A stretch of 64,000 nt of DNA, taken from positions 1,963,667-2,027,666 of the forward strand of contig CBDCOZ010000003.1 in NCBI GenBank assembly GCA_965220085.1, written 5' to 3'. The notes beneath the pieces were generated by a model. The model made no database searches. It saw only the letters and a program-made list of their open reading frames with translations, and had not been told where the DNA came from. Each line of letters starts with the position of its first letter. Position 1 is the stretch's first letter. Position numbers and translations under genes: made by a program. Of this stretch, positions 894 through 33,292 are shown piece by piece. This DNA is from Candidatus Oxydemutatoraceae bacterium. Its GTDB lineage: Bacteria > Pseudomonadota > Gammaproteobacteria > Poriferisulfidales > Oxydemutatoraceae.

Positions 894-1408
894 TGCCCCG
901 ACTCCCGCGCCGGGCGAATGATTGCCTGTTGCGCATCGTGCTTCCGGTTTGCGCTGCCCCGACTCCCGCGCCGGGCGAATGATCGCCTGTTGCGCATCGT
1001 GCTTCCGGTTTGCGTTGCCCCGACTCCCGCGCCGGGCGAATGATCGCCTGTTGCGCATCGTGCTTCCGGTTTGCGTTGCGCCGCCTCCCGCGCCGGGCGA
1101 ATGATTGCCTGTTGCGCATCGTGCTTCCGGTTTGCGCTGCCCCGACTCCCGCGCCGGGCGAATGATTGCCTGTTGCGCATCGTGCTTCCGGTTTGCGTTG
1201 CCCCGACTCCCGCGCCGGGCGAATGATCGCCTGTTGCGCATCGTGCTTCCGGTTTGCGTTGCCCCGACTCCCGCGCCGGACGAATGATCGCCTGTTGCGC
1301 ATCGTGCTTCCGGTTTGCGCTGCGCCGACTCCCGCGCCGGGCGAATGATCGCCTGTTGCGCATCGTGCTTCCGGTTTGCGCTGCCCCGACTCCCGCGCCG
1401 GGCGAATA
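894..1408. repeat. 61-bp direct tandem repeat, about 8.4 copies (unit ctgccccgactcccgcgccgggcgaatgattgcctgttgcgcatcgtgcttccggtttgcg)
   Basis: Near-perfect copies start at 894, 955, 1016, ... 1382. There are no spacers. The array sits inside the conserved 3' flank of the coiled-coil gene family, and the single-copy version lies at about 54470–54530. Confidence 0.95.
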
Positions 1409-6015: not shown

Positions 6016-8316
6016 TTGAAAAAGAAAGTCATCTCCAAAGCAACCGCCAAACGGTTACAAAAACCGCAGACACGACCGCCGGGCTCCGGGTTGCTCAAAC
6101 GCCTGCGCACCGCCATCGGCGCCATGCTGGTTGTCATCATCGCTTACCTGTTATTGGTATTGCTCGGCTACCACCCCGACGACCCGTCGTGGGCAAACAA
6201 TGTTCCTGCCGACCAAACCCGCAATCCCGGCGGCGTCATCGGCGCATGGATTGCATACACCTTGTATTTTTTCCTCGGCGGCCCGGCGCTTGTTTTGTTC
6301 CCGCTCGCCATCGGCCTGAGCGCGTGGCACTACTTTAAGCAGGAAGAGAGCGCCCCGTCCTTTCTCAACGAGCACCTGATCAACTGGCTGACATTTGTGC
6401 TGACGATCATCGCGTGTTGCGGGCTGGCATCGCTGCATTTTGTCGGCCACGAACTGCCATTGACGGCGGGCGGGCGGGTCGGCGAGGTGGCGGCGCGCAA
6501 TTTTGTCAGCGTATTCGGAATGGTCGGCTCCACGGTGCTATTGACCGGCCTTGCGGTCACCGGCTTCACCCTGATGACCGGCATTTCGTGGCTCAAAGTC
6601 ATGGATGCCATCGGCGCTTCGATATTCCGCCTGCTGGATTGGGGCAAAGAGCTGCGCGAACGCCGCGCCACGCAACTCGCCGCGGAAGACCGAGAGAAGA
6701 GAATCGTGCAAAGGAAGAAAAAGTTGTCTATTGATACGCCGCCGCGGATTGAACCGCAGGTCAAATCGGTCGGGCCGAGCAAACGCCAGCGGCGCGAGCG
6801 GCAGATCGGATTGCCCCAAGTGAAATCGTCCGATGAGTTGCCGGCGCTGAGTTTGCTGGATGCCTCGGCCGAAGAAGTCGCGGCGTATTCCGAAAAAGAG
6901 CTCAACCAAATGGCGAAGCAATTGGAGATCAAGTTGCAGGACTTCGGCATTGAAGCGGAGGTCACCGAAGCGCAGCCCGGCCCGATCATCACGCGCTTTG
7001 AATTGTTGCCGGCGCCCGGCACCAAAGCGTCCTCTATCAGCAATCTGGAGAAGGACCTGGCGCGCTCCATGTCGGTTCCGAGTCTGCGCGTCGTTGAAGT
7101 GATTCCGGGCAAATCGGTGGTCGGCATAGAAATTCCGAATCAGCGACCGTCCGTTGTGCGGCTGGGAGAAATTCTCGGTTCGCAAAAATACGACGAAGCC
7201 AAATCGCCTCTGACGCTCGCGCTCGGCAAAGGCATTACCGGCGAAGCGACGATGGTGAATCTGGAAAGCCTGCCCCATCTGCTGGCGGCGGGCACGACCG
7301 GGGCCGGCAAGTCGGTGGCGGTACATGTCATGCTGCTCAGTCTCTTGTTTAAGAATCTTCCCCGACAGGTGCGCCTGATTCTGATCGACCCCAAGATGCT
7401 GGAACTCAAAACCTACGAAAACATCCCCCACTTGCTGACGCCGGTGATTACCGATATGAACGAAGCAGCCGGCGTCCTGAACTGGGCGGTGGCCGAAATG
7501 GAACGGCGTTATCAATTGATGGCAAGCGTCGGCGCGCGCAATATCGGCGGGCTGAACCAGCGCATCGCCGAAGCGCAGAACCGCGGGCAGCCGCTGCGCG
7601 ACCCGTTGCTTGAGAATAGCGACGGCGAAGAGGGGGAAGCGAATGAGGCGCCGCTGCTGGAAGCGATGCCCTATATCGTCATCGTCATAGACGAGTTTGC
7701 GGACATGATGATGGTCGCCGGCAAAAAAGTCGAGGAACTGATTATCCGCCTGGCGCAAAAAGCCCGCGCCGCCGGCCTGCACCTGATTCTTGCGACCCAA
7801 CGGCCTTCCGTCGATATCATCACCGGTCTGGTCAAAGCAAACATTCCGGCGCGGATCGCTTTTCAGGTGTCGTCCAAAGTCGATTCGCGAACCATCCTGG
7901 ACCAAAACGGCGCCGAACAACTGCTCGGCAAAGGCGACATGTTATTCCTCGCCCCCGGCGGCGGCTTGCCGGAACGCATCCACGGCGCGTTTGTCAGCGA
8001 TCGGGAAGTCGCCAAGGTGACGGATTTTCTGCGCCGGACGGGAACGCCGCAATACGAAGACCTGCTCGCTGCGCCGACAGCCGGCGCGGGCGGCGCGGGC
8101 GGCGGACAAGGCGATGACCCGCTGTTTGACGAAGCCGTCGCCATCGTCACCGCATCCAACAAGGCCTCCATATCGCATCTGCAACGCCGCCTCAAGATCG
8201 GCTATAACCGCGCCGCCAGAATGATAGAGGACATGGAAGCCGCCGGCATTGTCAGCGCGGTGCAATCCAACGGCAGCCGCGAAGTGCTGGCGCCGCGCGA
8301 AGGTCGCGAATCATGA
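6016..8316 (+). CDS. ftsK: DNA translocase FtsK
   Basis: TTG start. Has N-terminal TM helices, a Pro/Gln-rich linker, Walker A GTTGAGKS and a C-terminal gamma winged-helix ([28 protein letters not shown]). Confidence 0.95.
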
Positions 8317-9125
8317 TGCGCCGCCTCAAGATCGGCTATAACCGCGCCGCCAGAATGATAGAGGACATGGAAGCCGCCGGCATTGTCAGCGCAGCGCAAT
8401 CCAACGGCAGCCGCGAAGCGCTGGCGCCGCGCGAAGGTCGCGAATCATGATGCGCCGCCTCAAGATCGGCTATAACCGCGCCGCCAAAATGACAGAGGAC
8501 ATGGAAGCCGCCGGCATTGTCAGCGCAGCGCAATCCAACGGCAGCCGCGAAGCGCTGGCGCCGCGCGAAGGTCGCGAATCATGATGCGCCGCCTCAAGAT
8601 CGGCTATAACCGCGCCGCCAAAATGACAGAGGACATGGAAGCCGCCGGCATTGTCAGCGCAGCGCAATCCAACGGCAGCCGCGAAGCGCTGGCGCCGCGC
8701 GAAGGTCGCGAATCATGATGCGCCGCCTCAAGATCGGCTATAACCGCGCCGCCAGAATGACAGAGGACATGGAAGCCGCCGGCATTGTCAGCGCAGCGCA
8801 ATCCAACGGCAGCCGCGAAGCGCTGGCGCCGCGCGAAGGTCGCGAATCATGATGCGCCGCCTCAAGATCGGCCATAACCGCGCCGCCAGAATGACAGAGG
8901 ACATGGAAGCCGCCGGCATTGTCAGCGCAGCGCAATCCAACGGCAGCCGCGAGGCGCTGGCGCCGCGCGAAGGTCGCGAATCATGATGCGCCGCCTCAAG
9001 ATCGGCTATAACCGCGCCGCCAGAATGACAGAGGACATGGAAGCCGCCGGCATTGTCAGCGCAGCGCAATCCAACGGCAACCGCGAAGCGCTGGCGCCGC
9101 GCGAAGGTCGCGAATCATGATGCGC
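8183..9125 (+). repeat. 134-bp tandem array of 7 copies: the ftsK 3' end plus the ATGA junction, with 6 extra copies before lolA
   Basis: ATGATGCGCCGCCTC recurs at 8313, 8447, 8581, 8715, 8849, 8983 and 9117 (period 134). The copies differ by a few point substitutions. Confidence 0.95.
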
Positions 9126-9731
9126 CGCCTCGGACTTTTGCTCTTGTGGCTGCCGTGTGTCGGCTCCGCCGGCGCACTCGACGACCTCTACCACTTTTTT
9201 CAGGCGACAACATTTGAGGCAGACTTTGCGCAGAAAGTCTATGACGATGAAGATCAATTGCTGGAGACTTCCCAAGGCTTTGTGCTGTTCCGCCGCCCGG
9301 GGCAATTCCGCTGGGAATACCGCGCGCCCGAAAGTTACATCATCACGACCGACGGCATCAATCTGCTCGTCTATGACCCGGCTTTGTCTCAGGCCTATGT
9401 TCGCCCGACGATGGAAGCGCTCGGCACCGCGCCTTTGCGCCTGCTGTTAGACCGCCGCCGGGTCTTTGATGATTTTGATTTGGAACCGGTTGCGCGCGCC
9501 GACAAACTGAAGTGGGTACGCTTGACTCCGAAAGTGGACGACACCGAATTCACGCATTTTGAAGTCGGCTTTGCCGGGCACGGGATCAGCCGCATGGCGT
9601 TGTTCGATCGCTTTGATCAACGCATAGACATACGCTTTGACAATGTGAAGATCAACCCGGCGATAGCGGCAAGCCGTTTCAAACTCCGGTTGCCGCCGGA
9701 CACCGATGTCATCGGCGACTACCTGCGCTGA
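9117..9731 (+). CDS. lolA: Outer-membrane lipoprotein carrier protein LolA
   Basis: Has a signal peptide [20 protein letters not shown] and LolA-like sequence throughout. Conserved ftsK–lolA synteny. Confidence 0.9.
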
Positions 9732-10455
9732 ACCGAACCGCTATGCGGCCGGCGAGCGGAACAGCTTGGAAACGGGATTGACGTTTTTCACTTCCATCTG
9801 ATCGACGCGCTTGCCGGCTTGCGTCAGGCCGTTAAACGACGGGCACACAAACAGGTTGCCATTCGCGGCAAGCCGTTTCAAACTCCGGTTGCCGCCGGAC
9901 ACCGATGTCATCGGCGACTACCTGCGCTGAACCGAACCGCTATGCGGCCGGCGAGCGGAACAGCTTGGAAACGGGATTGACGTTTTTCACTTCCATCTGA
10001 TCGACGCGCCTGCCGGCTTGCGCCAGGCCGTTAAACGACGGGCACACAAACAGGTTGCCATTCGCGGCAAGCCGGTTCAAACTCCGGTTGCCGCCGGACA
10101 CCGATGTCATCGGCGACTACCTGCGCTGAACCGAACCGCTATGCGGCCGGCGAGCGGAACAGCTTGGAAACGGGATTGACGTTTTTCACTTCAAACTGAT
10201 CGACGCGCCTGTCGGCTTGCGTCAGGCCGTTAAACGACGGGCACACAAACAGGTTGCCATTCGCGGCAAGCCGGTTCAAACTCCGGTTGCCGCCGGACAC
10301 CGATGTCATCGGCGACTACCTGCGCTGAACCGAACCGCTATGCGGCCGGCGAGCGGAACAGCTTGGAAACGGGATTGACGTTTTTCACTTCAAACTGATC
10401 GACGCGCCTGTCGGCTTGCGTCAGGCCGTTAAACGACGGGCACACAAACAGATTG
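9671..10455. repeat. ~180-bp tandem array of about 4.3 copies spanning the convergent 3' ends of lolA (+) and the nucleotidyltransferase gene (−)
   Basis: GCAAGCCGTTTCAAACTCCGG recurs at about 9671, 9871, 10051 and 10231. Each unit carries the lolA stop and the C-terminal codons of the minus-strand gene. Confidence 0.9.
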
Positions 10456-11054
10456 CCACTCACCGCGAGGCGCCGTTGTTCGCGGATTGAAAAGGCGGCC
10501 GCTTCCAGAAATGTCGCGACATCGCGGAAAAAATAGGTGCCGGCGGAAGCGTGTTCGGAAATCACGCGCTTTTCCGCCGTCGCGGTCACACGCCCGCGCG
10601 CGTCAATCGCAAGATAGCTGTAGCAGGCATCATCGGCGCGAAACCACGGAATCAAACCCGACGAATCGGCATCCGCCAACCAGACATCGATCTGCTCCGC
10701 GTCCGCATCGTAGATGATATCGGCGAGGTCTATGCACAGCGGCTCCTCCAAGCGCGCGCTGGCCGACACGCCGGCGACGGCGGAAAGCAGCGCCCCGCGC
10801 GTCGGGCTATTCAAATATGCCTTCTGCGCGCCGACAAAACAGCGGTCAAGAAAGCGGGCGATGGCAGCCGATTCGGGCACATCGGCGCGCAATACAAAAA
10901 TCAGGTCGGCGCTCGCCACAACGCCATCGCGCCACCATGGCCGCGATGTCAAAACCCGTTCTATCAGCGGCGTTCCGTCGACTTCCGACAAAGGCTTGAC
11001 GCAACCGTTTGCGCGAACGATATCGGCGCCGGCCAGAGGAACCACGCAGATCAT
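10338..11054 (-). CDS. Sugar-phosphate nucleotidyltransferase family protein (MobA-like NTP_transferase fold)
   Basis: MICVVPLAG…KPL…GTPLIERVL. The start was chosen at the ATGA overlap with the upstream gene's stop. Confidence 0.55.
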   Translation of the reverse strand: MICVVPLAGADIVRANGCVKPLSEVDGTPLIERVLTSRPWWRDGVVASADLIFVLRADVPESAAIARFLDRCFVGAQKAYLNSPTRGALLSAVAGVSASARLEEPLCIDLADIIYDADAEQIDVWLADADSSGLIPWFRADDACYSYLAIDARGRVTATAEKRVISEHASAGTYFFRDVATFLEAAAFSIREQRRLAVSGNLFVCPSFNGLTQADRRVDQFEVKNVNPVSKLFRSPAA

Positions 11055-16182: not shown

Positions 16183-16457
16183 ACACCGTCGAAGTCATCT
16201 ACGCCCAAGCGGATGCGCAGAAAAAAGTCACCCTGCGGCTTGAAGACGGCGCCACCGCCGAGGATGCCATCAAACGCTCCGGGCTGCTGACGCTGTTTCC
16301 GCAGATAGACTTGCGCCGCAATCAAGTCGGCATTTACGGACGGCCGGTCGCGCTGAACAAAGTCGTCCGCGCCGGCGACCGGGTGGAAATTTACCGCAGT
16401 CTGCACAAATCGCCCGTCGAACAGCGCCGCGAACGGGCGCGGAGCAGCGGGGCGTAA
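16179..16457 (+). CDS. ratB: RnfH/RatB family ubiquitin-like protein
   Basis: About 92 aa with a VEVIYA…GDRVEIYR pattern. Overlaps the ratA stop. Confidence 0.7.
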   Translation: MNTVEVIYAQADAQKKVTLRLEDGATAEDAIKRSGLLTLFPQIDLRRNQVGIYGRPVALNKVVRAGDRVEIYRSLHKSPVEQRRERARSSGA

Positions 16458-16800
16458 GCGCCGGGCCGGCTCATAGCAACTCTCTGCCGGCATTCGCCAG
16501 CATCCGTCGCAACGCAATCAAAGGCAAACCGATCAAGGCGCTGGGGTCGGCGCTCTCAATGCAAGAACACAATGCGATGCCGAGACTCTCGGAACGAAAG
16601 CTGCCGGCGCACTCCCACGGCGCGTAAGCGCGGGGCCGGCTCATAGCAACTCTCTGCCGGCATTCGCCAGCATCCGGCGCAACTCGATCAAAGGCAAACC
16701 GATCAAAGCGCTGGGGTCGGCGCTCTCAATGCAAGAACACAATGCGATGCCGAGACTCTCGGAACGAAAGCTGCCGGCGCACTCCCACGGCGCGTCGCGA
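16447..16800. repeat. 177-bp direct duplication (2 copies) at the convergent ratB/maf junction
   Basis: 16447–16623 is nearly identical to 16624–16800. Each copy carries the maf C-terminal codons (…[12 protein letters not shown]). Confidence 0.9.
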
Positions 16801-17790: not shown

Positions 17791-17997
17791 ATGGCTGTTC
17801 AAAAGAATCGCAAAACAAGGTCCAAACGCAATATGCGCCGTTCGCACGACGCGCTCGCGCCGCCGACGCTGTCCGAAGACCCGATTACCGGGACCAAACA
17901 CAGACGGCATCACATCAGCGAAGACGGGTTTTATCGCGGACAAGAAGTCATCGCGCAACCCGTTATTGACGACGACGAAGAAAATCAAGAAGCGTAA
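17791..17997 (+). CDS. rpmF: 50S ribosomal protein L32, with an acidic C-terminal extension
   Basis: [22 protein letters not shown] signature. Confidence 0.9.
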
Positions 17998-18027
17998 GGC
18001 GGAGCCCGATATCACAAGGGTCTTTAA

Positions 18028-19047: not shown

Positions 19048-19049
19048 TT

Positions 19050-19979
19050 ATGGAAATATATTCGCGCATCGCCGGCACCGGCTCCTGTCTTCCAAAACGC
19101 ATCATGACCAATGCCGAGCTCGAGCAACGGGTGCAAACAAGCGACCAATGGATACGCGAGCGCACCGGCATTGAGCAGCGCCACATCGCCGGCGACGACG
19201 AGACGACCTGCGCCCTCGCCTGCCTTGCCGCCGAACGGGCGATGGAGGCGGCGCACGCGCAAGCCGAAGACATAGACCTGATCATTCTTGCGACGACGAC
19301 TCCGGACAAAGTGTTTCCGAGCACCGCCTGCCTGTTGCAAAAGCGCATGGGGCTCGGCGAATGTCCGGCGTTTGACATACAGGCGGTCTGCACCGGATTC
19401 GTATACGCGCTGGACATCGGCAACCGCTTCATCAAAACCGGCGGCGCGCAATGCGCGCTGATCATCGGCGCCGAAGTCATGTCGCGTATTCTTGATTGGA
19501 ACGACCGCTCGACATGCGTGTTGTTTGGCGACGGCGCCGGCGCTGTCGTGCTGCAAGCAAGCGATGAGCCGGGCATCTGCTCAACCCACCTGCACGCCGA
19601 CGGGCGCTATGAGGAACTGCTTCGCGCGGATGACAAAGTGGAAATGAAAGGCAGCGAGGTGTTTAAGATCGCCGTCAGAACGCTGGGGCAGATCGTCGAT
19701 GAAACGCTGCAAGAAAACAACCTCACCGCCGGGGACATCGATTGGCTGGTGCCGCATCAGGCAAACTCCCGCATCCTGGCGGCGACCGCAAAAAAACTGG
19801 ACATGTCTCTTGACCAAGTCATCATGAGCGTCGACAAGCACGGCAACACATCGGCGGCTTCCATTCCCCTGGCTCTGGACGGGGCGGTGCGCGACGGTCG
19901 CATCCGACGCGGGCACAAGCTGTTGCTGGAAGCGTTCGGCGGCGGTTTCACGTGGGGCTCGGCGTTGTTGCGCTTCTGA
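19050..19979 (+). CDS. fabH: 3-oxoacyl-ACP synthase III
   Basis: Active-site Cys in [11 protein letters not shown]. His/Asn residues are conserved. C-terminal GGGFTWGS. Confidence 0.9.
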
Positions 19980-20037
19980 CCCGCGCCGGGCGAACGCGTC
20001 GCGACAGCCCGCGGACGTCGGGCATAATATACAGACT

Positions 20038-21876
20038 ATGCTTGCGACGACGGACACACAGCGGACATTAAAGGAACGTGTCAAAACACTGGGACACGAC
20101 CCGGGCGTGTACCGGATGCTGGATCGGCAAGGCACGATCATTTATGTCGGCAAGGCGCGCAATCTGAAAAAACGCGTCGGTTCGTACTTTAGCAAGAGCA
20201 AACTGAGTCCGAAGACGAAAGCGCTGATGGCGCAAACCCACGACATCGACTGCGTGATCACGCAGTCCGAAGTGGAAGCCTTGTTGCTTGAGAACAACCT
20301 GATAAAAAAGCACCGGCCGCGCTACAACGTATTCTTCCGCGACGACAAAAGCTACCCGTATATCCATATATCCGCCGACGAATTTCCGCGCGTGACCTTC
20401 TACCGCGGCAACCGCAAGAGCGCCGGTCGCTACTTCGGCCCCTACCCCAATGTGCTGGCGGTGCGTGAAACCTTGAACCTGTTGCAAAAATTATTCAAGT
20501 TGCGCCAGTGCAGAAATTCTTTTTTTAAAAACCGTTCGCGGCCCTGCCTTCAATATCAGATTAAACGTTGCGACGCCCCCTGTGTCGGCCTGACCGGCAC
20601 GGAGCATTACCGCGAACAGTTGTCACTTGCGGTCGAGTTGCTGTCCGGCAACAGCCGCAAGGTAATAGAAACCCTGATAAACAAAATGGAAACGGCGGCA
20701 AGCGATATGCAATACGAAGAAGCCGGCGCCCGCCGCGATCAAATCGCCCTGCTCAGAAAAGTATCCGAACAGCAATCGGTCAGCTCCGACGGCGGCGACA
20801 GCGACATTATCGCCTGCCGTTTTGAGGGGCGGTGTGCCTGCGTTCAGGTGTTCAATATCCGCGGCGGCTTAAACATCGGCAATAAAACTTTCTACCCGCA
20901 ACTGCCGGATAGCGATGTTGATGTCGGAATAATTCTGACAGCATTTACCGGACAATATTATCTGACCCACAAGCCGCCCGATGAGATTATCTTCAGCGAC
21001 AAACCGGCTGATGAGGCAACGCTGGCAGCGATGTTGAGTACAAAAGCGGGCAAAAATGTGAAGCTGACGAATACGCCGGCGGGCAAGAAGCGGCGCTGCC
21101 TGCTACTTGCAATCAAGAATACCGAAAACGCATTGAAAACACGCCTGACATCGCGCAAAGGGATACACGAACGATTGCAAAGCCTGCAAGAAGCGCTGGA
21201 TTTACCCGACCTGCCGCGACGCATTGAATGTTTTGATATCAGCCATACGATGGGCGAGAAAACAGTCGCCTCGTGTGTCGTGTTTGATCAGCAAGGTGCT
21301 AACAAACAGGAGTATCGCCGCTTTAACATCAGCGGGATCACGCCCGGCGATGATTGCGCCGCCATGCGTCAGGCGGTCACGCGCCGTTACCGGCGGCTCA
21401 AACGCGGCGAGGCAAAACTTCCCGATGTCCTGCTCATCGACGGCGGTAAAGCGCAAACCGGGGAAGCGAGGGCTGTTCTGAAAGAGTTGGAAATTGAAAA
21501 TGTTGAAGTGATCGGCGTAGCCAAGGGGGTAGAACGCAAGGCCGGTGAAGAGACACTGATTTGCGGGGATTTTGGCGAGACGATGAAACTGCCTCCCGAT
21601 TCTGCCGCCTTGCACCTGATTCAACAAATCCGCGATGAGGCACATCGCTTTGCCATCACCGGACACAAGCTGCGGCGGTCAAAGACGCGCAAAAGATCAA
21701 CGCTGGAAGATATTGCGGGCATCGGCCCGGGGCGGCGGCGCAACTTGCTTAAATACTTTGGCGGCGCGCAGGCGATTGAAGCGGCCGGCATAGACGAGAT
21801 CGGCAAAGTGCCGGGAATCAGCAAACGCATCGCCGGGCTGATTTACGAAGCGATGCACCGCAAGGAGACCGACTGA
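20038..21876 (+). CDS. uvrC: Excinuclease ABC subunit C
   Basis: GIY-YIG N-terminus (GVYRMLD…IIYVGKA), UvrBC domain, and C-terminal RNase H-like and HhH domains. Confidence 0.93.
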   Translation: MLATTDTQRTLKERVKTLGHDPGVYRMLDRQGTIIYVGKARNLKKRVGSYFSKSKLSPKTKALMAQTHDIDCVITQSEVEALLLENNLIKKHRPRYNVFFRDDKSYPYIHISADEFPRVTFYRGNRKSAGRYFGPYPNVLAVRETLNLLQKLFKLRQCRNSFFKNRSRPCLQYQIKRCDAPCVGLTGTEHYREQLSLAVELLSGNSRKVIETLINKMETAASDMQYEEAGARRDQIALLRKVSEQQSVSSDGGDSDIIACRFEGRCACVQVFNIRGGLNIGNKTFYPQLPDSDVDVGIILTAFTGQYYLTHKPPDEIIFSDKPADEATLAAMLSTKAGKNVKLTNTPAGKKRRCLLLAIKNTENALKTRLTSRKGIHERLQSLQEALDLPDLPRRIECFDISHTMGEKTVASCVVFDQQGANKQEYRRFNISGITPGDDCAAMRQAVTRRYRRLKRGEAKLPDVLLIDGGKAQTGEARAVLKELEIENVEVIGVAKGVERKAGEETLICGDFGETMKLPPDSAALHLIQQIRDEAHRFAITGHKLRRSKTRKRSTLEDIAGIGPGRRRNLLKYFGGAQAIEAAGIDEIGKVPGISKRIAGLIYEAMHRKETD

Positions 21877-22427
21877 TGCTGCCGACTGTCTTAACATTCA
21901 CACGCATCGCCGCAGTACTGCTGCTGGTAATCGTGTTTTACCTGCCCTTCTCACAGACACATTTGTGGTGTGCGATTATCTTTGCTTTCGCGATGCTTAC
22001 CGATGTGTTTGACGGCTACCTGGCGCGCAAATTCGATCAAGAGAGTTCGTTCGGCGCGTTTCTTGATCCGGTCGCCGACAAACTCATCGTCAGCGTTGCG
22101 ATCATCTTGTTGGTCAGCGCCAACCCGTCCGTCTTCGTCGTCTTGCCCTCGCTGGTGATCATCTGTCGCGAGATCACCATGCTGGCCTTGCGCGAATGGA
22201 TGGCCGGAATCGGACAACGCGAACTGGTCGCGGTCACGATGGTCGCAAAAATGAAAACAATCAGTCAGGCGATTGCGATCACGCTGATGTTCTATCGCGA
22301 GCCCATCGGCGAGTGGGACGTGTACCAAACCGGTTTGGCACTGCTGTACATCTCCGCGACCCTGACGCTGACATCCATGGCGACATACCTAAAGATTGTG
22401 TCAAAGAACGTGAAGTGGTCGGACTAG
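21876..22427 (+). CDS. pgsA: CDP-diacylglycerol–glycerol-3-phosphate 3-phosphatidyltransferase
   Basis: DVFDGYLAR…G..LDPVADK CDP-alcohol phosphatidyltransferase motif. Confidence 0.9.
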   Translation: MLPTVLTFTRIAAVLLLVIVFYLPFSQTHLWCAIIFAFAMLTDVFDGYLARKFDQESSFGAFLDPVADKLIVSVAIILLVSANPSVFVVLPSLVIICREITMLALREWMAGIGQRELVAVTMVAKMKTISQAIAITLMFYREPIGEWDVYQTGLALLYISATLTLTSMATYLKIVSKNVKWSD

Positions 22428-22446
22428 TGTTGAGCAAAAGAGAAGG

Positions 22447-22522
22447 TGGAGCGGGAAACGAGGTTCGAACTCGCGACCTCAACCTTGGCAAGGTTGCGCT
22501 CTGCCAGCTGAGCTATTCCCGC
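22447..22522 (-). tRNA. tRNA-Gly(GCC)
   Basis: A cloverleaf was folded by hand: acceptor GCGGGAA/TTCCCGC, anticodon loop TTGCCAA, encoded CCA. Confidence 0.9.
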
Positions 22523-24402: not shown

Positions 24403-25335
24403 ATGTCTGCCGATGCGGCCACAATACCGCAATCAACCGATAATGAGGCTGTCGCAGTCTCATCCACCTCGCTGATTGCATTGGCACACGCCGCGCGCGG
24501 GCTCTCGCTAAACCCCAAACAGATCCGCGCGCGCACCAGCGATACGATGCAATCCCGCTTCAAGGGTCGCGGCATGGAATATGACGAGTCGCGCCCTTAT
24601 CAACCGGGTGATGATGTGCGCCATCTGGATTGGCGCGTGACAGCGAGAAGCAATGCGACCTATACGAAAACATTTCAGGAAGAACGCGAACGACCGGTGT
24701 TCTTGTGGGTGGATAACCGCGGGCCGATGTTCTTTGCAACACGCGGCAAATTCAAATCGGTTGTTGCGGCGGAAATAGCGGCGCTGCTGGGTTGGAGCGC
24801 CACACACCGCGGCGATCGCGTCGGCGGCGCGGTATTTTTCGGTGAAGAACACCACGAGGTAAAGCCCATGCGCGGGCGACGCGGCATCCTGCGCTTGCTC
24901 CATTACCTGTCGCAACCGCCCCTTGACGGGATCAGTGACACAGCACTCGGCATACCGCTGAACAGAATGTCGCGCATCGCCCGCCCCGGCAGTCTGGTTA
25001 TCCTGATCAGCGACTTTCGCCAGTGCGATGAGCGGGCACAGACTAATCTGCGGCGCCTTGCGGCGCACAGCGAGTTGGTTATGCTTCAGGTGTATGACAC
25101 GCTCGAACAAGAACTGCCGCCGCCGGGGGATTATCGGGTCAGCGACGGGCGCAACGAGGTGCGGTTTGCTTCGCGCGATAGCGCCTTGCGCAAAACCTAT
25201 CGCGATGCGTTTGCGCAGCGCACGCAACTGACGATGAGTCTGGCAAAGAAACTGCGTTCTGCGTATCTTCGCTGTCGCACAAGCGATAATCCTCTGACCG
25301 TGTTGAAAGGAACGTTTGGAGCCCGCAGCCGATGA
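24403..25335 (+). CDS. DUF58 domain protein
   Basis: Partner of MoxR in Bat operons, with a VWA-like fold signature. Confidence 0.8.
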   Translation: MSADAATIPQSTDNEAVAVSSTSLIALAHAARGLSLNPKQIRARTSDTMQSRFKGRGMEYDESRPYQPGDDVRHLDWRVTARSNATYTKTFQEERERPVFLWVDNRGPMFFATRGKFKSVVAAEIAALLGWSATHRGDRVGGAVFFGEEHHEVKPMRGRRGILRLLHYLSQPPLDGISDTALGIPLNRMSRIARPGSLVILISDFRQCDERAQTNLRRLAAHSELVMLQVYDTLEQELPPPGDYRVSDGRNEVRFASRDSALRKTYRDAFAQRTQLTMSLAKKLRSAYLRCRTSDNPLTVLKGTFGARSR

Positions 25336-25791
25336 ACCCGGAAGCGATCGGCGAACTCCTTGCGCAACTGACGATGAGTCTGGCAAAGAAACTGCGTTCT
25401 GCTTATCTTCGGTGTCGCACAAGCGATAATCCTCTGACCGTGTTGAAAGGAACGTTTGGAGCCCGCAGCCGATGAACCCGGAAGCGATCGGCGAACTCCT
25501 TGCGCAACTGACGATGAGTCTGGCAAAGAAACTGCGTTCTGCTTATCTTCGGTGTCGCACAAGCGATAATCCTCTGACCGTGTTGAAAGGAACGTTTGGA
25601 GCCCGCAGCCGATGAACCCGGAAGCGATCGGCGAACTCCTTGCGCAACTGACGATGAGTCTGGCAAAGAAACTGCGTCCTGCTTATCTTCGGTGTCGCAC
25701 AAGCGATAATCCTCTGACCGTGTTGAAAGGAACGTTTGGAGCCCGCAGCCGATGAACCCGGAAGCGATTGGCGAACTCCTTGCGCAACTGC
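25221..25791 (+). repeat. 140-bp tandem array of 4 copies: the DUF58 3' end plus the DUF4381 5' end
   Basis: GCCCGCAGCCGATGAACCCG recurs at 25321, 25461, 25601 and 25741. Confidence 0.95.
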
Positions 25792-26267
25792 GCGATATTC
25801 GCTTGCCCGAACCTCCCGGTTGGTGGCCGCCGGCGCCCGGTTGGTGGATCCTGGCAGCGATACTGGCAGCGTCGATTGCGGGCGGTATCTGGCGGCGGCG
25901 GCAACACATCGCGCATATCAATTCGCCGCGCTATCTGGCGCTTGAGCAACTTGATATATTGCGCGCGCGCTATCGCGCGGACCATGATGCGCAGCGCTTG
26001 CTGGCAGACATCTCCGCTCTGATGCGGCGCGTCGCGCTGAGCATCGGGCCGCGACGGGAAGTCGCCTCGCTGACCGGCGAACAGTGGCTTGATTGGATTA
26101 ACAGACATACGAGCGGCGCGCCGCTTGATGAAAACATTGCGCGGACTCTGATCGATGCGCCGTATCGCCCGACGGCGCAAAGCGATGCCGAGGCGATACT
26201 GCGGGCGTGCGAAGAATGGGCCGAAGGGCTTGAGAGCAAGCGGGGGCAAAGCGATGCTGCACTTTGA
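25752..26267 (+). CDS. DUF4381 domain protein
   Basis: N-terminal LPEPPGWWPPAPGWW plus a TM helix. Confidence 0.7.
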   Translation: MNPEAIGELLAQLRDIRLPEPPGWWPPAPGWWILAAILAASIAGGIWRRRQHIAHINSPRYLALEQLDILRARYRADHDAQRLLADISALMRRVALSIGPRREVASLTGEQWLDWINRHTSGAPLDENIARTLIDAPYRPTAQSDAEAILRACEEWAEGLESKRGQSDAAL

Positions 26268-27243
26268 ATGGCTCTGGGTCTGGTTCCTGCTGCCGCTGCC
26301 GCTGTTGATACGCTGGCTGATGAAGCCGGCGCCGACGCATAGCCGCGCCGCTTTGCGTATTTCTTTCATCGACGATTTCTCATTCGGCGACACAGAACGC
26401 GGCGGCTTCGGCCCTGCGCACCGTTGGTTACTGATATCGGCGGGAGCGGCGTGGTTGCTTCTGGTCATCGCCGCCAGCCGTCCGCAGTGGGTCGATGAGA
26501 TTACCAAGATACAAGCGAGCGGTCGCGACTTGATGCTCGCAGTCGATATTTCCGGCAGCATGAAGACCGAAGATTTCGCATTGAACAATCGCCGCGCGAC
26601 GCGGCTGCAAGTCGCCCGTTCGGTGGCTGCCGATTTCATTAAGCAGCGCGAGGGAGACCGCATCGGCCTCATCGTTTTCGGCGCGGAACCGTACTTGCAG
26701 ATGCCGCTGAGTTTTGATTTGGAGACGGTGCGGGATATGCTCAACTCGACTTTTATCGGCCTCGCCGGCGAGAAGGCGACCGCGATAGGCGACTCTATCG
26801 GTCTGGCGATCAAACGCTTGCGCGCGTACGAGGAGAGCAACCGTGTGCTGATACTGCTGACCGACGGGATCAACAACGCCGGCAACATCAACCCGATGGA
26901 TGCCGCCGATGTCGCCGCGCAACAAGGCATGAAGATTTATACCATCGGCATCGGCTCGGTAGGGAGAAGCGTGTTCTCTCTGCAACCGGCGCCCGAACTG
27001 GACGAGGACACGCTGAAAAAGGTCGCACAAAAAACCGGCGGGCGGTATTTCCGCGCGACCAACACCAAAGAGCTCAGAGAAATCTACGCTATCTTGGACA
27101 AGTTGGAGGTGATAGAACGCGATCAAAAGACGGTCGCGCTCTATACCGAGTTGTACCCGTGGCCGTTGGCCCTGGCGGGTCTGATCGCGTTTCTGCTGTT
27201 GCTGGCCAATATATTGCAAAGGGGGCTGTCATGGAGTTCTTGA
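26254..27243 (+). CDS. batA: VWA-domain protein BatA
   Basis: Two N-terminal TM helices. MIDAS motif DISGSM…T…D. Confidence 0.85.
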   Translation: MLHFEWLWVWFLLPLPLLIRWLMKPAPTHSRAALRISFIDDFSFGDTERGGFGPAHRWLLISAGAAWLLLVIAASRPQWVDEITKIQASGRDLMLAVDISGSMKTEDFALNNRRATRLQVARSVAADFIKQREGDRIGLIVFGAEPYLQMPLSFDLETVRDMLNSTFIGLAGEKATAIGDSIGLAIKRLRAYEESNRVLILLTDGINNAGNINPMDAADVAAQQGMKIYTIGIGSVGRSVFSLQPAPELDEDTLKKVAQKTGGRYFRATNTKELREIYAILDKLEVIERDQKTVALYTELYPWPLALAGLIAFLLLLANILQRGLSWSS

Positions 27244-29030
27244 GCGATTTTCATTTTTTGCGGCCGTGGTGGTTTGTCGCCATCGTGCCGCTGGCTGTCG
27301 CGCTCTGGTTGCTCGCTAAGATGCAGTCGGGAGAGAAGAGTTGGGAGACGATCTGCGACCGCCACCTGCTGCCGCACATCCTGATCGGGCGCGATACGAC
27401 GAGCAGCAAAAAATTTATGCTCGCGCTTGCCGCCGCGATCGGCGCGGTATCCATTCTCGCCCTTGCCGGGCCCGCTGCGGAAAAACAACAGCAGCAGGTG
27501 TTTGAAAACGAATCCGCTCTGGTCGTCGTGTTTGACCTGTCGCGCTCGATGAATGCGGTGGACATACCGCCGAGCCGTCTGGTGCGCGCGCGGTATAAGA
27601 TCAGCGACCTGATCAATCGTTACCAAAGCGGCGGGCAGTTTGCGCTGGTGACGTATGCCGCCGATGCGTTTACTGTCATGCCGCTTACCGACGACACCGC
27701 GGCATTTGAAATGTACTTGTCGTCCCTGAATAGCGGTATGCTGCCGGAACAAGGCAGCCGCCCCGATCTGGCGCTGGAACATTCCGCCGCGCTGGTCGAG
27801 CAGGCCGGCTTGGAGCGGGGAGACATACTGCTGGTCAGCGATTATGTCGACAGCGACCGCAGTCACGCCATGGCCAAGGACCTGGCGCAGCGGGGATACC
27901 GCATTTCGGTACTCGGCGTCGGCAGCAAAGAAGGCGCGCCGATTCGGGTGAACGGCAACATCTTCACCCACAACGGCAAGACCGTCGTCGCGCATTTTGA
28001 TGCGGCGCCTTTGCGCGAACTTGCCAAGCTCGGCAACGGCATCTACAGGCAGTTAGACCCCACCGGCGAGAGCGATATCGCCGCGCTCAACGAGTTGTTT
28101 GAGTCCGCGCCGAAATTGCCGGCGGAAGACGGCTCATCGCAGGTGTTCGGCGAGGCCTGGAAAGAACAGGGGCCGTGGTTGGTGTTGCTGTTATTGCCGT
28201 TGGCGGCTCTCGGTTTCAGGCGCGGGCTCTTAGTCGCCGCGCTTGCTATCACGCTCCCTCTGCCACAACCGGCGACGGCCAACTGGTGGGATGATCTGTG
28301 GCAGCGCGGCGACCAGCAAGCGATGGAAGCATTTGAAAAGGGCGACACCGAGACCGCCGCCGAACTGTTTGATGACCCGAGGTGGCGGGCGGCGAGCAGT
28401 TTTCGCAGCGGCAATTATCGGCAGGCGCAACAGGCGCTTGAGAAACCGCAGAGCGCCGGCGACTGGTATAACCTTGGCAATGCGCAAGCGCACGGGGGTA
28501 ATTTTGAGGGGGCGATCAAATCGTACAAGCGCTCTATTGAGCTTGACCCTGCGATGGAAGATGCGCAACACAACATGGGCATCGTCAGACAGTTGTTGCA
28601 AGAGCAACAGGCGCAAGCCGGCGAAGGCGATGAGGAGGACGCCGAAGGAGAAGAAGCGGAAGGACAACAGGGCGAAGCCGAACAACAAGACGGTTCCGAG
28701 GCGGAACAGGCGGGGCAGGCGGACAGCTCCGGCGATGAAAACGATCCGGATGATGCTTCCGAGCAAGAAGCCGGCAAAGAGGAGCAAGAGCAGGCCGACT
28801 CCGGCGCGCAAGGAAACGAGGAGCAGGAACAGTCCGCCGCCGACGAGCAAGACGATGAGGAAGCGCAAACCGGCGCTAACGAGGGAGAGACGATGCCCGA
28901 GGACAAGCAGGCGATAGAACAGTGGTTGCGTCAGGTTGAGGACAATCCGTCGCGGATGTTGCAACGCAAGTTTCGTTATCAGCAGAGAAAGGAAAACAAA
29001 AATACCGAGGAGGGGGAAAACCCATGGTGA
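27231..29030 (+). CDS. batB: VWA plus TPR protein BatB, with a long acidic low-complexity tail
   Basis: DLSRSM MIDAS motif and TPR helices (DWYNLGNAQAHGGNFEGAIKSYKRSIELDP). Confidence 0.85.
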   Translation: MEFLSDFHFLRPWWFVAIVPLAVALWLLAKMQSGEKSWETICDRHLLPHILIGRDTTSSKKFMLALAAAIGAVSILALAGPAAEKQQQQVFENESALVVVFDLSRSMNAVDIPPSRLVRARYKISDLINRYQSGGQFALVTYAADAFTVMPLTDDTAAFEMYLSSLNSGMLPEQGSRPDLALEHSAALVEQAGLERGDILLVSDYVDSDRSHAMAKDLAQRGYRISVLGVGSKEGAPIRVNGNIFTHNGKTVVAHFDAAPLRELAKLGNGIYRQLDPTGESDIAALNELFESAPKLPAEDGSSQVFGEAWKEQGPWLVLLLLPLAALGFRRGLLVAALAITLPLPQPATANWWDDLWQRGDQQAMEAFEKGDTETAAELFDDPRWRAASSFRSGNYRQAQQALEKPQSAGDWYNLGNAQAHGGNFEGAIKSYKRSIELDPAMEDAQHNMGIVRQLLQEQQAQAGEGDEEDAEGEEAEGQQGEAEQQDGSEAEQAGQADSSGDENDPDDASEQEAGKEEQEQADSGAQGNEEQEQSAADEQDDEEAQTGANEGETMPEDKQAIEQWLRQVEDNPSRMLQRKFRYQQRKENKNTEEGENPW

Positions 29031-30694
29031 TGAGAGTTGCCCAAGCGGTCTTGATCGGCATATCGCTGCTCGCGGTCACGGCGATGGCGGCGGATGTGCG
29101 CACGGTCGTCAAACGCAACCAGATTGAGATCGGCGAATCGTTTCAGGTGGAATTCGTAAGCAACAAGAAAGACACGGGCGCGCCGGATTTTTCGCCGCTT
29201 AACAAAGACTTCCGGGTGTTGGGGAGGAATCAAAAATCCACGCAAAGCATCATCAACGGGGTCGTGAAAATAGAGAAGAAGTGGATCGTGGAGTTATCGC
29301 CCAAGCGCGCCGGGCGGCTGAAAATTCCGGCATTGAACTTTGGCAATGCGAAGAGCCGGGAAGCGTTTGTGCGGGTGAAAAAAGCAAAACCTGCGGCGCC
29401 CGGCAAGGCGGAGGACATCTTTATGGAGATGACAGCGCAACCCTTGTCGCCTTATGTGCAGGCGCAGGTTCTGGTCATTACGCGCCTGTATACGATCAAG
29501 AGCCTGCGCGGGTCGATCAGCGATATTGCGGCGGAAAGCGATGCCATCATAAAGAAGGTCGGCGATGCGAAGAACTACAGGAAGGCGCATCGCGGACGCA
29601 ACTACAACATACACGAAAACCGCTACTTCGTTTATCCGCAAAACAGCGGCGCTGTCAAGATCAAGCCGCCGCAACTGGACGCGCAGTACACCGAGCGGGG
29701 GCGGCGTTATACGGTGCGCAAATCGGCCGCGCCGGTGACCCTCAATGTGCGCCCGGCGCCCGCTTCTTTTACCGGCGTTGCGTGGCTGCCCGCCGAAAGG
29801 ATACGGCTGTCCGAAACGTGGTCGGAAGATTTGGCGTCCCTGCAGGCGGGCGCGCCGCTTGTGCGCACGATAGCCATCAAAGGGCGCGGCATTTCAAGCG
29901 CGCAGTTGCCGGAAATCAAACAGGATGAGGTCGATAATCTCCGGCTCTATCCCGAGCAGGCGACGCTCAAAGACAATACGGGGAATACGCTGGACTCGGA
30001 ACGCATCCAAAAGTTTGTGTTGATTCCGTCTCAGGCGGGGCAGTACAGGCTGCCGGAGATTCGCATCCCGTGGTGGAATACCAAAACCGATAAGACCGAA
30101 TATGCCACCTTGCCGGCGCGGACTCTGTCGGTTGAGGAAGCGGCGGCGGGGTTGATTATCACGCCCGAACCGGTTGTCGCATCGCAGCAAGCAGCGCCCG
30201 TCGGCGATAGCGACGACAGCAATCTGTGGGCGTGGGTCAGCGCTTTGATGTTGCTCGGGTGGAGCGCGACCGGCGCGCTGGTATGGAAACAGCGGGGCAT
30301 CGTCGCGGCTCATGCGGCTGCTGCGACCGATAACCGGCGCAAAGAGGAGAAGCAGGCGGCGAACTTGCGGCGCTGTCGCAGGCAGTTGGAAAAAGCATGC
30401 GCGAACGACGACCGCCTGGCAACCAGAAATACCATGTTGCGCTGGGCCAAACTGATGTGGCCCGACAGGGATACGAAGTCTCTCGGGCAGTTGGCGCTGT
30501 TGGCCGATGATGCCGCGCTGGTCGAAGAGATCAGGCGATTGGATGAGGCGCTTTATTCCGAGCACAGCGATTGGAGCGGCAAGGAGATGTGGACGGCGTT
30601 GCAAGCCTGCTCCGAAACCGCGAAGGAACGACCCGCCGGTCGGTTTGCCAGAAAAAAATCCGGCGGGCTGGCGGCGTTGCACAAACTGAAGTGA
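29024..30694 (+). CDS. batD: BatD family protein
   Basis: Signal peptide and C-terminal TM helix. Position in the operon. Confidence 0.75.
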   Translation: MVMRVAQAVLIGISLLAVTAMAADVRTVVKRNQIEIGESFQVEFVSNKKDTGAPDFSPLNKDFRVLGRNQKSTQSIINGVVKIEKKWIVELSPKRAGRLKIPALNFGNAKSREAFVRVKKAKPAAPGKAEDIFMEMTAQPLSPYVQAQVLVITRLYTIKSLRGSISDIAAESDAIIKKVGDAKNYRKAHRGRNYNIHENRYFVYPQNSGAVKIKPPQLDAQYTERGRRYTVRKSAAPVTLNVRPAPASFTGVAWLPAERIRLSETWSEDLASLQAGAPLVRTIAIKGRGISSAQLPEIKQDEVDNLRLYPEQATLKDNTGNTLDSERIQKFVLIPSQAGQYRLPEIRIPWWNTKTDKTEYATLPARTLSVEEAAAGLIITPEPVVASQQAAPVGDSDDSNLWAWVSALMLLGWSATGALVWKQRGIVAAHAAAATDNRRKEEKQAANLRRCRRQLEKACANDDRLATRNTMLRWAKLMWPDRDTKSLGQLALLADDAALVEEIRRLDEALYSEHSDWSGKEMWTALQACSETAKERPAGRFARKKSGGLAALHKLK

Positions 30695-31440
30695 ACCGCC
30701 TTATGCGAACCGCCGACCTGTTAATCCATGCGCACCGAGTCCTGCCGATTAATCCGGCAAACACGGTGTTGAATGCCCACAGCGTGGCGGTAAGCGCCGG
30801 CAGGATTGCCGCCGTGATGCCGAGCGCTGATGCGCGTCGCAACTGGCTGGCGGCGTTGCACAAACTGAAGCGAACCGCCTTATGCGAACCGCCGACCTGT
30901 TAATCCATGCGCACCGAGCCCTGCCGATCCGCCCGGCAAACACGGTGTTGAATGCCCACAGCGTAGCGGTGCGCGATGGCCGGATTGCCGCCGTGATGCC
31001 GAGCGCCGATGCGCGTCGCAACTGGCTGGCGGCGTTGCGCAAACTGAAGCGAACCGCCTTATGCGAACCGCCGACCTGTTAATCCATGCGCACCGAGTCC
31101 TGCCGATCCGCCCGGCAAACACGGTGTTGAATGCCCACAGCGTAGCGGTGCGCGATGGCCGGATTGCTGCTGTGATGCCGAGCGCTGACGCGCGCCGCAA
31201 CTGGCTGGCGGCGTTGCGCAAACTGAAGCGAACCGCCTTATGCAAACCGCCGACCTGTTAATCCATGCGCACCGAGTCCTGCCGATCCGCCCGGCAAACA
31301 CGGTGTTGAATGCCCACAGCGTAGCGGTGCGCGATGGCCGGATTGCCGCTGTGATGCCGCCCGCTGACGCGCGCCGCAACTGGCGGCGTTGCACAAACTG
31401 AAGCGAACCGCCTTATGCGAACCGCCGACCTGTTAATCCA
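30666..31440 (+). repeat. 179-bp tandem array of about 5 copies: the batD 3' end plus the first ~150 nt of mtaD
   Basis: ATGCGAACCGCCGACCTG recurs at 30703, 30882, 31061, 31240 and 31415. The last spacing is 175. Confidence 0.95.
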
Positions 31441-32730
31441 TGCGCACCGAGTCCTGCCGATTAATCCGGCAAACACGGTGTTGAATGCCCACAGCGTAGC
31501 GGTGCGCGATGGCCGGATTGCCGCCGTGATGCCGAGCGCCGACGCGCGTCGCAACTGGCGGGCGCAACAGTCTGTTGACTTGCCGAGCCATGTCCTGATG
31601 CCGGGGTTGGTAAACGCGCATACGCATACGCCGATGAGTTTGTTGCGCGGCTTCGCCGATGATATGCCGCTGATGTCGTGGTTGCGCGATTACATCTGGC
31701 CGGCGGAACGGCGCTGGGTCAGCCGCGAATTCGTGCGCGCCGGATCGCACCTCGCTTATGCCGAACTTTTGCGCGGCGGGGTGACGTGCTTTAACGATAT
31801 GTACTTCTTTCCGCAGGTCAGCGCGCAACTTGCCGACGAGACGGGCATCCGCGCCTGTATCGGCATGCTGGTGATGGATCTCGCAACCGCCTACGCCGAC
31901 AATCCGGAGCAGTATCTGGAGAAAGGGCTTGAATTGCGCGCACAATTTCATGATCACCCGACCGTGCATCCGGTGTTGGCGCCGCACGCGCCTTATACGG
32001 TGTCCGATGAATACCTGCGGCGCATCGCCGCGCTCGGCGACGAACTCGACTTGCAAATTTGCATGCACCTGCACGAGACTGCGCAAGAGATAGAAGACTC
32101 CCTCAAGCAATATGGCAGTCGTCCGTTGCGGCGGGTGGCCGCGCTCGGCTTATTGTCTTCGCGGTTGCTGGCGGTGCACGCGGCGCACTTGCAAGACGAT
32201 GAAATCCGCGCGCTGGCCGAAGCCGGTGCGGCGGTGATTCACTGCCCCGAATCCAACTTGAAACTGGCCAGCGGTTTTTGTCCGGCGCAAAAGTTAGCGG
32301 ACGCGGGGGGTGTGTCGCACTCGGCACCGACGGCGCGGCCAGCAACAATGATCTTGACATGATCGGAGAAATGCAAACCGCGAGTTTGCTGGCCAAGGGC
32401 GTCGGCAAAGATGCGACCGCGATGCCCGCGCATCGCGCATTGGAAATGGCGACACTGGCCGGCGCGCGCGCGCTCAAACTGGACGACCGTATCGGTTCGG
32501 TTGAAGTCGGCAAAAGCGCGGACTTGATAGCCATAGACCTGAGCGGGGCGGAAGCGAGACCGCTGTATGATATCGCATCGCATCTGGTCTACGCGACCGA
32601 CAGGCGGCAAGTCAGCGATGTCTGGGTGGCCGGGCGGCGGCTGTTGCAGAACCGCACATTGACGACGATTGACATCGACGCGCTCGGCCCGCGAGCGCTT
32701 GAAGGGGAGCGGAAAATCAGCGGCGGATGA
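31415..32730 (+). CDS. mtaD: 5-methylthioadenosine/S-adenosylhomocysteine deaminase (amidohydrolase), with an apparent −1/+2 frameshift at a G6 run (32305–32310)
   Basis: HxH metal motif (VNAHTHTPMSLLRG) in frame 1. …ALGTDGAASNNDLDM…SADLIAIDLS in a second frame starting at 32278. One extra G restores ADAGGCVALGTDG. Confidence 0.8.
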
Positions 32731-33292
32731 CTACGCGCAATCTTCTTCGCGGAACCATGCATTGACGACGATTGACATCGACGCGCTCGGCCCGCGAGCG
32801 CTTGAAGGGGAGCGGAAAATCAGCGGCGGATGACTATCTGCAGTCTTCGTCTTCGCGGAACCATGCATTGACGACAATTGACATCGACGCGCTCGGCCCG
32901 CGAGCGCTTGAAGGGGAGCGGAAAATCAGCGGCGGATGACTACGCGCAGTCTTCTTCGCGGAACCATGCATTGACGACGATTGACATCGACGCGCTCGGC
33001 CCGCGAGCGCGCGCTCAAACTGGATGACCGTATCGGTTCGGTTGAAGTCGGCAAAAGCGCGGACTTGATAGCCACAGACCTGAGCGGAGCGGAAGCGAGA
33101 CCGCTGTACGATATCGCATCGCATCTGGTCTACGCGACCGACAGGCGGCAAGTCAGCGATGTCTGGGTGGCCGGGCGGCGGCTGTTGCGGAACCGCACAT
33201 TGACGACGATTGACATGGACGCGCTCGGCCCGCGAGCGCTTGAAGGGGAGCGGAAAATCAGCGGCGGATGACTACCTGCAGTCTTCGTCTTC
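32437..33292. repeat. Nested duplications of the mtaD 3' end and the convergent PLD-gene 3' end (~92-bp units and a ~280-bp segment repeated)
   Basis: TTGACGACGATTGACATCGACGCGCTCGGCCCGCGAGCGCTTGAAGGGGAGCGGAAAATCAGCGGCGGATGACTAC occurs 4 times. 32440–32730 is about the same as 33010–33290. Confidence 0.85.

Follow-up and report, generated by a model that had tools for sequence, protein, structure and literature searches.

A five-copy tandem duplication across the batD/mtaD junction as one of at least seven junction-spanning arrays in a Candidatus Oxydemutatoraceae bacterium

The stretch of DNA analyzed here (the window) comprises 64,000 nucleotides (nt) of contig CBDCOZ010000003.1 from a Candidatus Oxydemutatoraceae bacterium, and the element under study is a tandem array, designated array F, which spans the junction between the genes batD and mtaD on the forward strand. 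Both gene names had been proposed in a sequence-only reading of this DNA and were borne out by a Pfam BatD match and by matches named MTA/SAH deaminase or TRZ/ATZ hydrolase. Tandem Repeats Finder (TRF) reported array F at 30666-31564 with a period of 179, 5.0 copies, 93% matches, and a score of 1553, and a repeat search placed the unit starts at 30666, 30845, 31024, 31203, and 31378, that is, with spacings of 179, 179, 179, and 175 nt. The 179-bp unit in five copies described by the sequence-only reading was recovered by both searches, as was its start; its end, which had been set at 31440, lies approximately 125 nt further on, at 31564. The five copies show a mean column identity of 93% in the alignment, and they are arranged head-to-tail with a constant period, as in a minisatellite or variable-number tandem repeat (VNTR). 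Each unit opens with the final 27 nt of batD and the stop position, continues through an 8-nt spacer to the mtaD ATG, and closes with 142 nt of mtaD, which correspond to 47 codons plus 1 nt. The batD gene ends with ...GGLAALHKLK-TGA inside copy 1. The mtaD gene is split into two frames at a G run (32305-32310), which is G6 in the window and G7 with an open frame in L001, a short-read contig of the same strain, and the frameshift is therefore probably a long-read consensus error rather than the mark of a pseudogene.

The sequence-only reading had placed the join of the units at GAACCGCC. This 8-mer flanks the ATG in every unit (30693 and 30707 in copy 1) and thus sits twice inside each unit, approximately 27 nt from the boundary. 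The true boundary sets batD ...GGGCTGGCGGCGTT (CTGGCGG at 30668) against mtaD ...CAACTGGCGGGCG (CTGGCGG at 31555), the mtaD side also reading ...CGCAACTGGCGGGCG, so that a short direct repeat at both ends of the native segment accounts for the join. The fourth, short join, AACTGGCGGCG / AACTGGCGGCGTTG at 31378, is the exact recombination product of the 7-mer CTGGCGG with a period of 175, and it lacks 4 nt of the other joins, in agreement with the shorter final copy noted beforehand. The three long joins, AACTGGCTGGCGGCG at 30841, 31020, and 31199, carry four extra bases and share only GGC. In addition to the 179- and 175-nt forms, the joins vary by T/C at -9 and A/G at +15. Either join type may have been derived from the other via a 4-nt CTGG slippage.

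The interior of the array contains a chain of four overlapping mini open reading frames (mini-ORFs). The batD TGA (30692-30694) is replaced by CGA in copies 2-5, and the mini-ORFs consequently run through to a TAA located 19-21 nt beyond the next ATG. The in-frame fusion of the MtaD N-terminus to the BatD tail, as it had been read from the letters, is supported by the ORF coordinates; the length of 66 amino acids (aa) given for the products applies to three of them, which share the end ...ADARRNWLAAL(H/R)KLKRTALC(E/K)PPTC followed by the stop, while the fourth is 53 aa long. No Shine-Dalgarno-like sequence was found upstream of the ATGs of array F. An Rfam scan of the whole window returned tRNAs only and nothing in array F, no promoter or terminator site and no inverted repeats were found in the array F unit, and the RNA fold of one unit is unremarkable (z = -0.21). 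With neither inverted repeats, an unusual RNA fold, nor an Rfam match, array F does not belong to a mobile or structured repeat class such as REP/BIME, MITE, CRISPR, or riboswitch/small RNA.

No close genome for MtaD was found among the GTDB species representatives, the best match showing 61% aa identity. A protein search retrieved L082, a Logan contig of run ERR14375725, which shows 84-87% nt identity to the window and the same gene order, batD-mtaD-PLD-symporter-DUF5655. In L082, batD and mtaD lie 14 nt apart and mtaD abuts the convergent PLD gene, both junctions being single-copy, and the array F unit is therefore a contiguous native stretch that is present once in this relative. With L082 as the outgroup for polarization of the array F variants, copy 1 agrees with the outgroup at six of the nine sites that distinguish it from the other copies and L001. 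These sites lie within two multi-nucleotide patches, with four of five in the 30786-30802 patch and two of four in TAAT/CCGC. Copy 1 carries GTAAGCGCCGGCAGG, which resembles the outgroup GTGAACGCCGGCAAG, and copies 2-5 carry GTGCGCGATGGCCGG; at the other patch, copy 1 reads TAAT, the outgroup CAAC, and copies 2-4 CCGC. The outgroup CAA at codon 2 is shared by copy 4. Variant sharing among the copies is reticulate, the GCT/GCC and GAT/GAC sites, for example, showing all four combinations, and this failure of the four-gamete test implies exchange between the copies. The differences between copies are often multi-nucleotide, such as TAAT versus CCGC at 30750-30753 / 31462-31465 and a six-change patch over 17 nt at 30786-30802, and the unit starts of another array in the window, array G (e.g., 32855-32867), read GAACCATGCATTG versus the native GAACCGCACATTG. 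Such patches suggest gene conversion or template switching, not independent point mutations. On this variant pattern, the copies are not recent clones; they have diverged, with patches passing between them.

Array F is not a one-off but one of at least seven junction-spanning arrays (arrays A-G, Table 1), and its explanation belongs to the genome rather than to batD/mtaD. The gene ends spanned by each array were assigned by Pfam mapping. Every array keeps an intact upstream gene in its first copy and an intact downstream gene in its last. When each array is collapsed to one copy, the junction gaps become -4, 9, 13, -4, 8, and 0 nt, as in the relatives, and the coding density of the window is approximately 90% at a G+C content of 55%. 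Approximately 27 gene junctions are present in the first 33 kb, of which seven (about a quarter) carry arrays, and seven duplications of such sizes, placed at random, would all avoid falling wholly within a gene with a probability of 1.8e-5. Under the same TRF thresholds, five arrays were detected in 1.21 Mb of 82 related gammaproteobacterial loci, corresponding to an approximately 50-fold higher density in the first 33 kb of the window, although many of the comparison loci are short-read assemblies, which under-report repeats. The occurrence of many unrelated arrays in one genome, all outside gene interiors, is a pattern of the Ehrlichia ruminantium type. End microhomologies of 9, 8, and 8 nt were found at arrays B, E, and D, respectively, and no boundary motif common to all arrays was found. 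The 8-mer CGCAACTG occurs at the unit ends of both array E (25223-25230, 25783-25790) and array F (30838-30845, 31550-31557). As a shared boundary motif of the two arrays it was rejected, since it is a codon-derived 8-mer with 18 hits versus 3.5 expected, ten of these being repeat copies, and its presence at both is probably a coincidence.

Table 1. Coordinates of array F, its flanking genes and mini-ORFs, and the other junction arrays of the window
Feature	Position	Strand	Description
Tandem array F	30666..31564	+	Five units; final 7-8 nt are the end microhomology; from repeat finders and copy alignment
Upstream microhomology partner CTGGCGG	30668..30674	+	batD codons ~548-550; aligned with single-copy relatives
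Downstream microhomology partner CTGGCGG	31555..31561	+	mtaD codons ~48-50; aligned with single-copy relatives
Array F joins			Join 31-mer GCGCGTCGCAACTGGCTGGCGGCGTTGCACA (plus two variants); short join GCGCGCCGCAACTGGCGGCGTTGCACAAACT
batD, intact	29024..30694	+	Last 27 nt and TGA within copy 1; Pfam BatD and DUF7939 on identical product
mtaD, MTA/SAH deaminase (amidohydrolase)	31415..32730	+	Start in copy 5; from ORF list, names from matches
Mini-ORF 1, 66 aa	30703..30903	+	MtaD 1-48 with outgroup-like alleles, LAALHKLK, and RTALCEPPTC
Mini-ORF 2, 66 aa	30882..31082	+	Overlaps mini-ORF 1 by 22 nt; called gene P0122 on source contig
Mini-ORF 3, 66 aa	31061..31261	+	From ORF list
Mini-ORF 4, 53 aa	31240..31401	+	Out of frame through 4-nt shorter join; ends 13 nt before true mtaD ATG
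Array A	894..1407	.	61 nt x 8.4; spacer between two convergent genes
Array B	8185..9131	+	134 nt x 7.1; ftsK 3' end/stop and lolA start; end microhomology CGCCGCCTC
Array C	9666..10458	.	199 nt x 4; lolA 3' end and 3' end of convergent gene
Array D	16448..16795	.	170 nt x 2; rnfH stop and maf 3' end (convergent); end microhomology CGGCGCGT
Array E	25223..25790	+	140 nt x 4.1; DUF58 3' end and DUF4381 start; end microhomology CGCAACTG
Array G	32657..33010	+	103 nt x 3.4; mtaD 3' end / PLD 3' end junction; single-copy in L082
541-bp duplication	32457-32748 = 32998-33289		Array G nested within

The junctions of arrays B, C, and D are single-copy and tight in the sister-species contigs L083-L085 and in the TARA scaffold L086. 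Within array B, sister-like alleles are confined to the functional first copy as opposed to the interior copies, which carry derived T>C changes. L086 (TARA_SAMEA6028867), compared with window 1505-17252, has the order methyltransferase, Pyr_redox, ftsK, lolA, smpB, SNF, ratA, rnfH, maf in common and is without three genes of window 10.3-13.7 kb; the synteny with this marine scaffold suggests a marine, possibly host-associated lineage. The strain of the window is also represented by three Logan contigs of run ERR14375724, with 100% identity over 16.8 kb outside array F. L088 corresponds to window 10422-16492, L089 to 16766-22501, and L001 to 25739-30749 (5011 bp), each with zero mismatches, and past array F, L001 differs from the window only by a 1-nt indel in the G run. 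The contig ends coincide with the first or last unique 31-mer beside array C (10422), array D (16492, 16766), array E (25739), and the 541-bp duplication, as expected of a k=31 graph at a real repeat. These four repeats are thereby corroborated, and the repeat structures of the assembly can in general be relied upon. L089 ends at 22501 inside tRNA-Gly(gcc) (22447-22522), implying that the genome holds this tRNA at a second site as well.

Based on these observations, array F is explained, with a probability of roughly 0.68, as a microhomology-mediated tandem duplication, or minisatellite, that unequal exchange and gene conversion amplified and scrambled and that is kept as a harmless element with no dedicated function. 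Judging from the join sequences, a nascent strand may have slipped during replication or repair between the CTGGCGG stretches 175 nt apart, or alternatively on the 3-nt GGC to give 179 nt. The product of this slippage would be a duplication of the batD tail, the stop, the 8-nt spacer, and the first ~48 mtaD codons. Two copies could then have become five by homologous unequal exchange, with a 4-nt CTGG slippage generating the second join type. Following this amplification, the copies diverged and swapped patches via gene conversion, as the pattern of shared variants shows, copy 1 retaining the older outgroup-like mtaD 5' alleles and copies 2-5 sharing the T>C change by which the copied batD stop is lost. 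The chimeric interior and the four overlapping mini-ORFs would be by-products, and the mini-ORFs called as genes are most likely annotation noise. The array is tolerated since an intact batD remains in copy 1 and an intact mtaD in copy 5. The same process may have operated at the other junctions (arrays A-E, G, and the 541-bp duplication), where selection would have removed duplications inside genes, and only junction-spanning arrays would remain for that reason. Array F appears to be unstable and belongs to a lineage-specific excess of these duplications.

Several observations weigh against this explanation, the foremost concerning copy number. L001 carries the batD/mtaD junction in one copy. 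All of its 31-mers are found in the array F of the window, and from k=61 up it contains combinations seen in no window copy, which join the copy 1 TGA to the CCGCC patch found in copies 2-4 and to the copy 5 exit. The Minia-style removal of tips, bulges, and erroneous connections was re-implemented as an approximate simulation based on contigs rather than reads. This simulation reproduces the outer ends of L001; it breaks at 30722/31513 when the five-copy allele makes up >=20% of the mixture and yields the exact 6065-nt L001 only with the five-copy allele at <=15%. The possibility that L001 is a collapsed de Bruijn traversal was rejected, as two simulations gave it no support at full allele frequency. 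Taken at face value, the simulation makes the one-copy form appear to dominate run ERR14375724, and the five-copy state is not the sole form, and perhaps not the main form, of the locus. Furthermore, array F is the most diverged array (93%), yet its flanks show zero divergence from the one-copy allele, which implies either a recent collapse with at least two exchanges or imported alleles. Microhomology is also not universal, the ends of arrays C and G sharing <=2 nt. As to the genome-wide extent, the second half of the window is without such arrays according to TRF, the view of the genome being limited to 64 kb of the 2.05-Mb source contig. Finally, the ratio of nonsynonymous to synonymous polymorphism (pN/pS) among the array F copies is mostly <0.5 (~15 events, all single synonymous changes being transitions), and this low value could hint at constraint on the peptides, subject to the small counts.

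The sequence-only reading had regarded a single-copy junction in spanning reads as decisive against the array. A single-copy junction is indeed found, in the short-read contig L001 and not in reads, and it points to copy-number polymorphism rather than to the absence of array F; the copy number is probably polymorphic among otherwise identical genomes. The one-copy allele is not the ancestor of copy 1 because the copy 1 alleles are older, and its simplest origin would be unequal exchange that recently collapsed the array. Copy 5, the expressed copy, departs from L001 solely by a 4-nt patch matching copy 1, a trace of gene conversion. An assembly artefact would offer another account of L001, according to which a genome with a single copy was misassembled, the long-read assembler having stacked strain variants or taken a wrong path through the repeat graph. 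In favor of this account, L001 reads through the batD/mtaD junction in single copy although contigs of that run end at arrays C, D, and E and at the 541-bp duplication, the consensus of the window is probably wrong in at least one place (G6 versus G7), the fused mini-ORF product was not found in any other data set, and an exact search of JGI metagenomes with the join 22-mer gave only one unrelated chance hit. An assembler, however, cannot invent four joins with their own variants, nor the consistent T>C change of the copied stop in copies 2-5, nor the outgroup-like alleles of copy 1 that are missing from L001. In addition, the anatomy of array F matches that of the six other arrays, four of the window repeats (C, D, E, and the 541-bp duplication) being corroborated to the nucleotide by the ends of short-read contigs, and an artefact is accordingly considered very improbable.

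Functional mini-ORFs, acting either as small proteins or as a leader-ORF relay that tunes mtaD translation by termination-reinitiation, are the least probable of the explanations considered. mtaD has no Shine-Dalgarno sequence and its native start lies 8 nt after the batD stop, and from this arrangement it is probably translationally coupled to batD; a chain of mini-ORFs, each ending shortly past the next ATG and the last stopping 13 nt before the true ATG, near the native spacing, could in principle relay ribosomes. The low pN/pS would also agree with a function, but with transition bias taken into account it falls short of significance in the present counts. The mini-ORFs are missing from the relatives and from the one-copy allele, and their sole homologue match is a cluster on the source contig itself. 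The mini-peptides end before the HxH metal motif (MtaD residues 67-69, as read from the sequence) and represent an incomplete piece of a beta-sandwich/TIM-barrel amidohydrolase, and copy 4 carries R2Q, S41P, and a frameshift. The ribosome-binding site and conservation of a genuine small-protein gene are thus not found here, the pN/pS counts are too small to show purifying selection, and the same anatomy occurs at the convergent junctions C, D, and G, where a relay is impossible. A targeted mechanism, in which replication-transcription conflict, fork stalling at gene 3' ends, or a lineage-specific enzyme drives template switching at junctions and the arrays possibly serve as reservoirs of gene-end alleles, is likewise improbable. 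It would fit with the position of all seven arrays, each of which includes or adjoins the 3' end of a gene and none of which occupies a divergent (5'-5') junction, with the conversion of a patch identical to silent copy 1 into the functional copy 5, and with the recurrence of multi-nucleotide patches in arrays F and G and of CGCAACTG at the unit ends of E and F. The lack of arrays at divergent junctions, however, is not significant (~4 of 27 junctions are divergent, P~0.3), the arrays have no boundary motif in common and CGCAACTG is a common codon-derived 8-mer here, and programmed variation has no rationale in MtaD, FtsK, LolA, and Maf, which are cytoplasmic or housekeeping proteins.

The ampC and lac amplifications of Escherichia coli and Salmonella (reviewed by Reams and Roth) arise through RecA-independent duplication at short homology followed by RecA-dependent amplification. 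The window arrays would resemble them in a founding join at a 7-9-bp direct repeat, in expansion and collapse by unequal exchange, and in unstable copy number. In contrast, those laboratory amplifications are kb-scale, dosage-selected, and lost without selection, whereas the window units are 61-199 bp long, confer no dosage benefit, and are 1-7% diverged. Silent-cassette gene-conversion systems are represented by pilE/pilS and vlsE, and these are similar to array F in the presence of truncated silent copies beside an expressed copy with mosaic patches moving between them (copy 1 to copy 5). Contrary to those systems, the target here is a cytoplasmic deaminase and there is no dedicated recombination signal, and the likeness is a side effect of any tandem array. 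For E. ruminantium, the 2005 PNAS work of Collins is said to have found that most of 32 pseudogenes are truncated, repeat-associated gene fragments, with units of up to hundreds of bp. This species, an obligate intracellular alphaproteobacterium, is AT-rich, with a coding density of ~64% and long spacers, in contrast to the 55% G+C and ~90% density of this gammaproteobacterial window, in which the units include the ends of the genes on both sides.

Literature searches for junction-spanning duplications in bacteria found nothing specific. The closest described parallel is the tandem-repeat dynamics of E. ruminantium, in which many arrays likewise lie in non-coding or junction DNA and expand and contract between near-identical strains (PMC10710844). 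The intergenic VNTR-105 and VNTR-141 of Wolbachia (PMC3287509) share with the window arrays a period of ~100-180 bp, an intergenic position, and a copy number that is polymorphic between very close strains, as it probably is for array F; however, Wolbachia has few such loci per genome, whereas the window has seven in 33 kb, with units containing the coding ends of both neighbors. The repeats of Borgs are similarly pervasive, genome-specific, missing from relatives, and accompanied by flanking partial repeats, and they vary in unit number within a population (PMC9879509). Borg repeats, however, are near-perfect and A-rich, and about half of them lie in ORFs with unit lengths divisible by three (PMC9879509), while the window arrays are 93-99% alike and G+C-rich, avoid gene interiors, and in none of seven cases have a unit length divisible by three. 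Array F, with 93% identity, G+C-rich units of 179/175 nt, and a position outside gene interiors, falls outside the Borg-type definition.

Taken alone, array F is an ordinary, probably neutral tandem duplication, and it is the context, a housekeeping region with ftsK, lolA, maf, the bat operon, and mtaD, that merits attention. If the pattern is genome-wide, it would provide a natural system for studying the rate of microhomology-mediated duplication and the selection filter acting on it, and it would also cause systematic annotation and assembly errors, such as fragments called as genes, contigs breaking at junctions, and collapsed arrays. A more far-reaching reading, which is unlikely, holds that this probably marine, possibly host-associated lineage has an unusually active, possibly 3'-end-associated template switching that seeds arrays at about a quarter of junctions. 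In that case, they would be fast-evolving stores of gene ends exchanged with the functional copy, together with chains of chimeric ORFs, and would form a free-standing counterpart of the E. ruminantium and Borg repeats with copy number switching between 1 and 5.

Other features of the window were noted in addition. ARAGORN predicts a 91-nt tRNA-Gly(acc) at 21358-21448 within uvrC, which is without Rfam support and is likely a false positive. Three coiled-coil proteins, encoded at 34-804, 54647-55702, and 56001-57101, have internal repeats of 27-135 nt, and the latter two genes are tandem paralogues with ~82% identity over 1.4 kb. The region 57417-63988 contains a paralogous family of minus-strand ORFs with 75-93% nt identity between segments and no Pfam match, and a spacer of this family (58382-58534) carries short near-perfect tandem repeats of 22 nt x 3.6 and 14 nt x 4.9.

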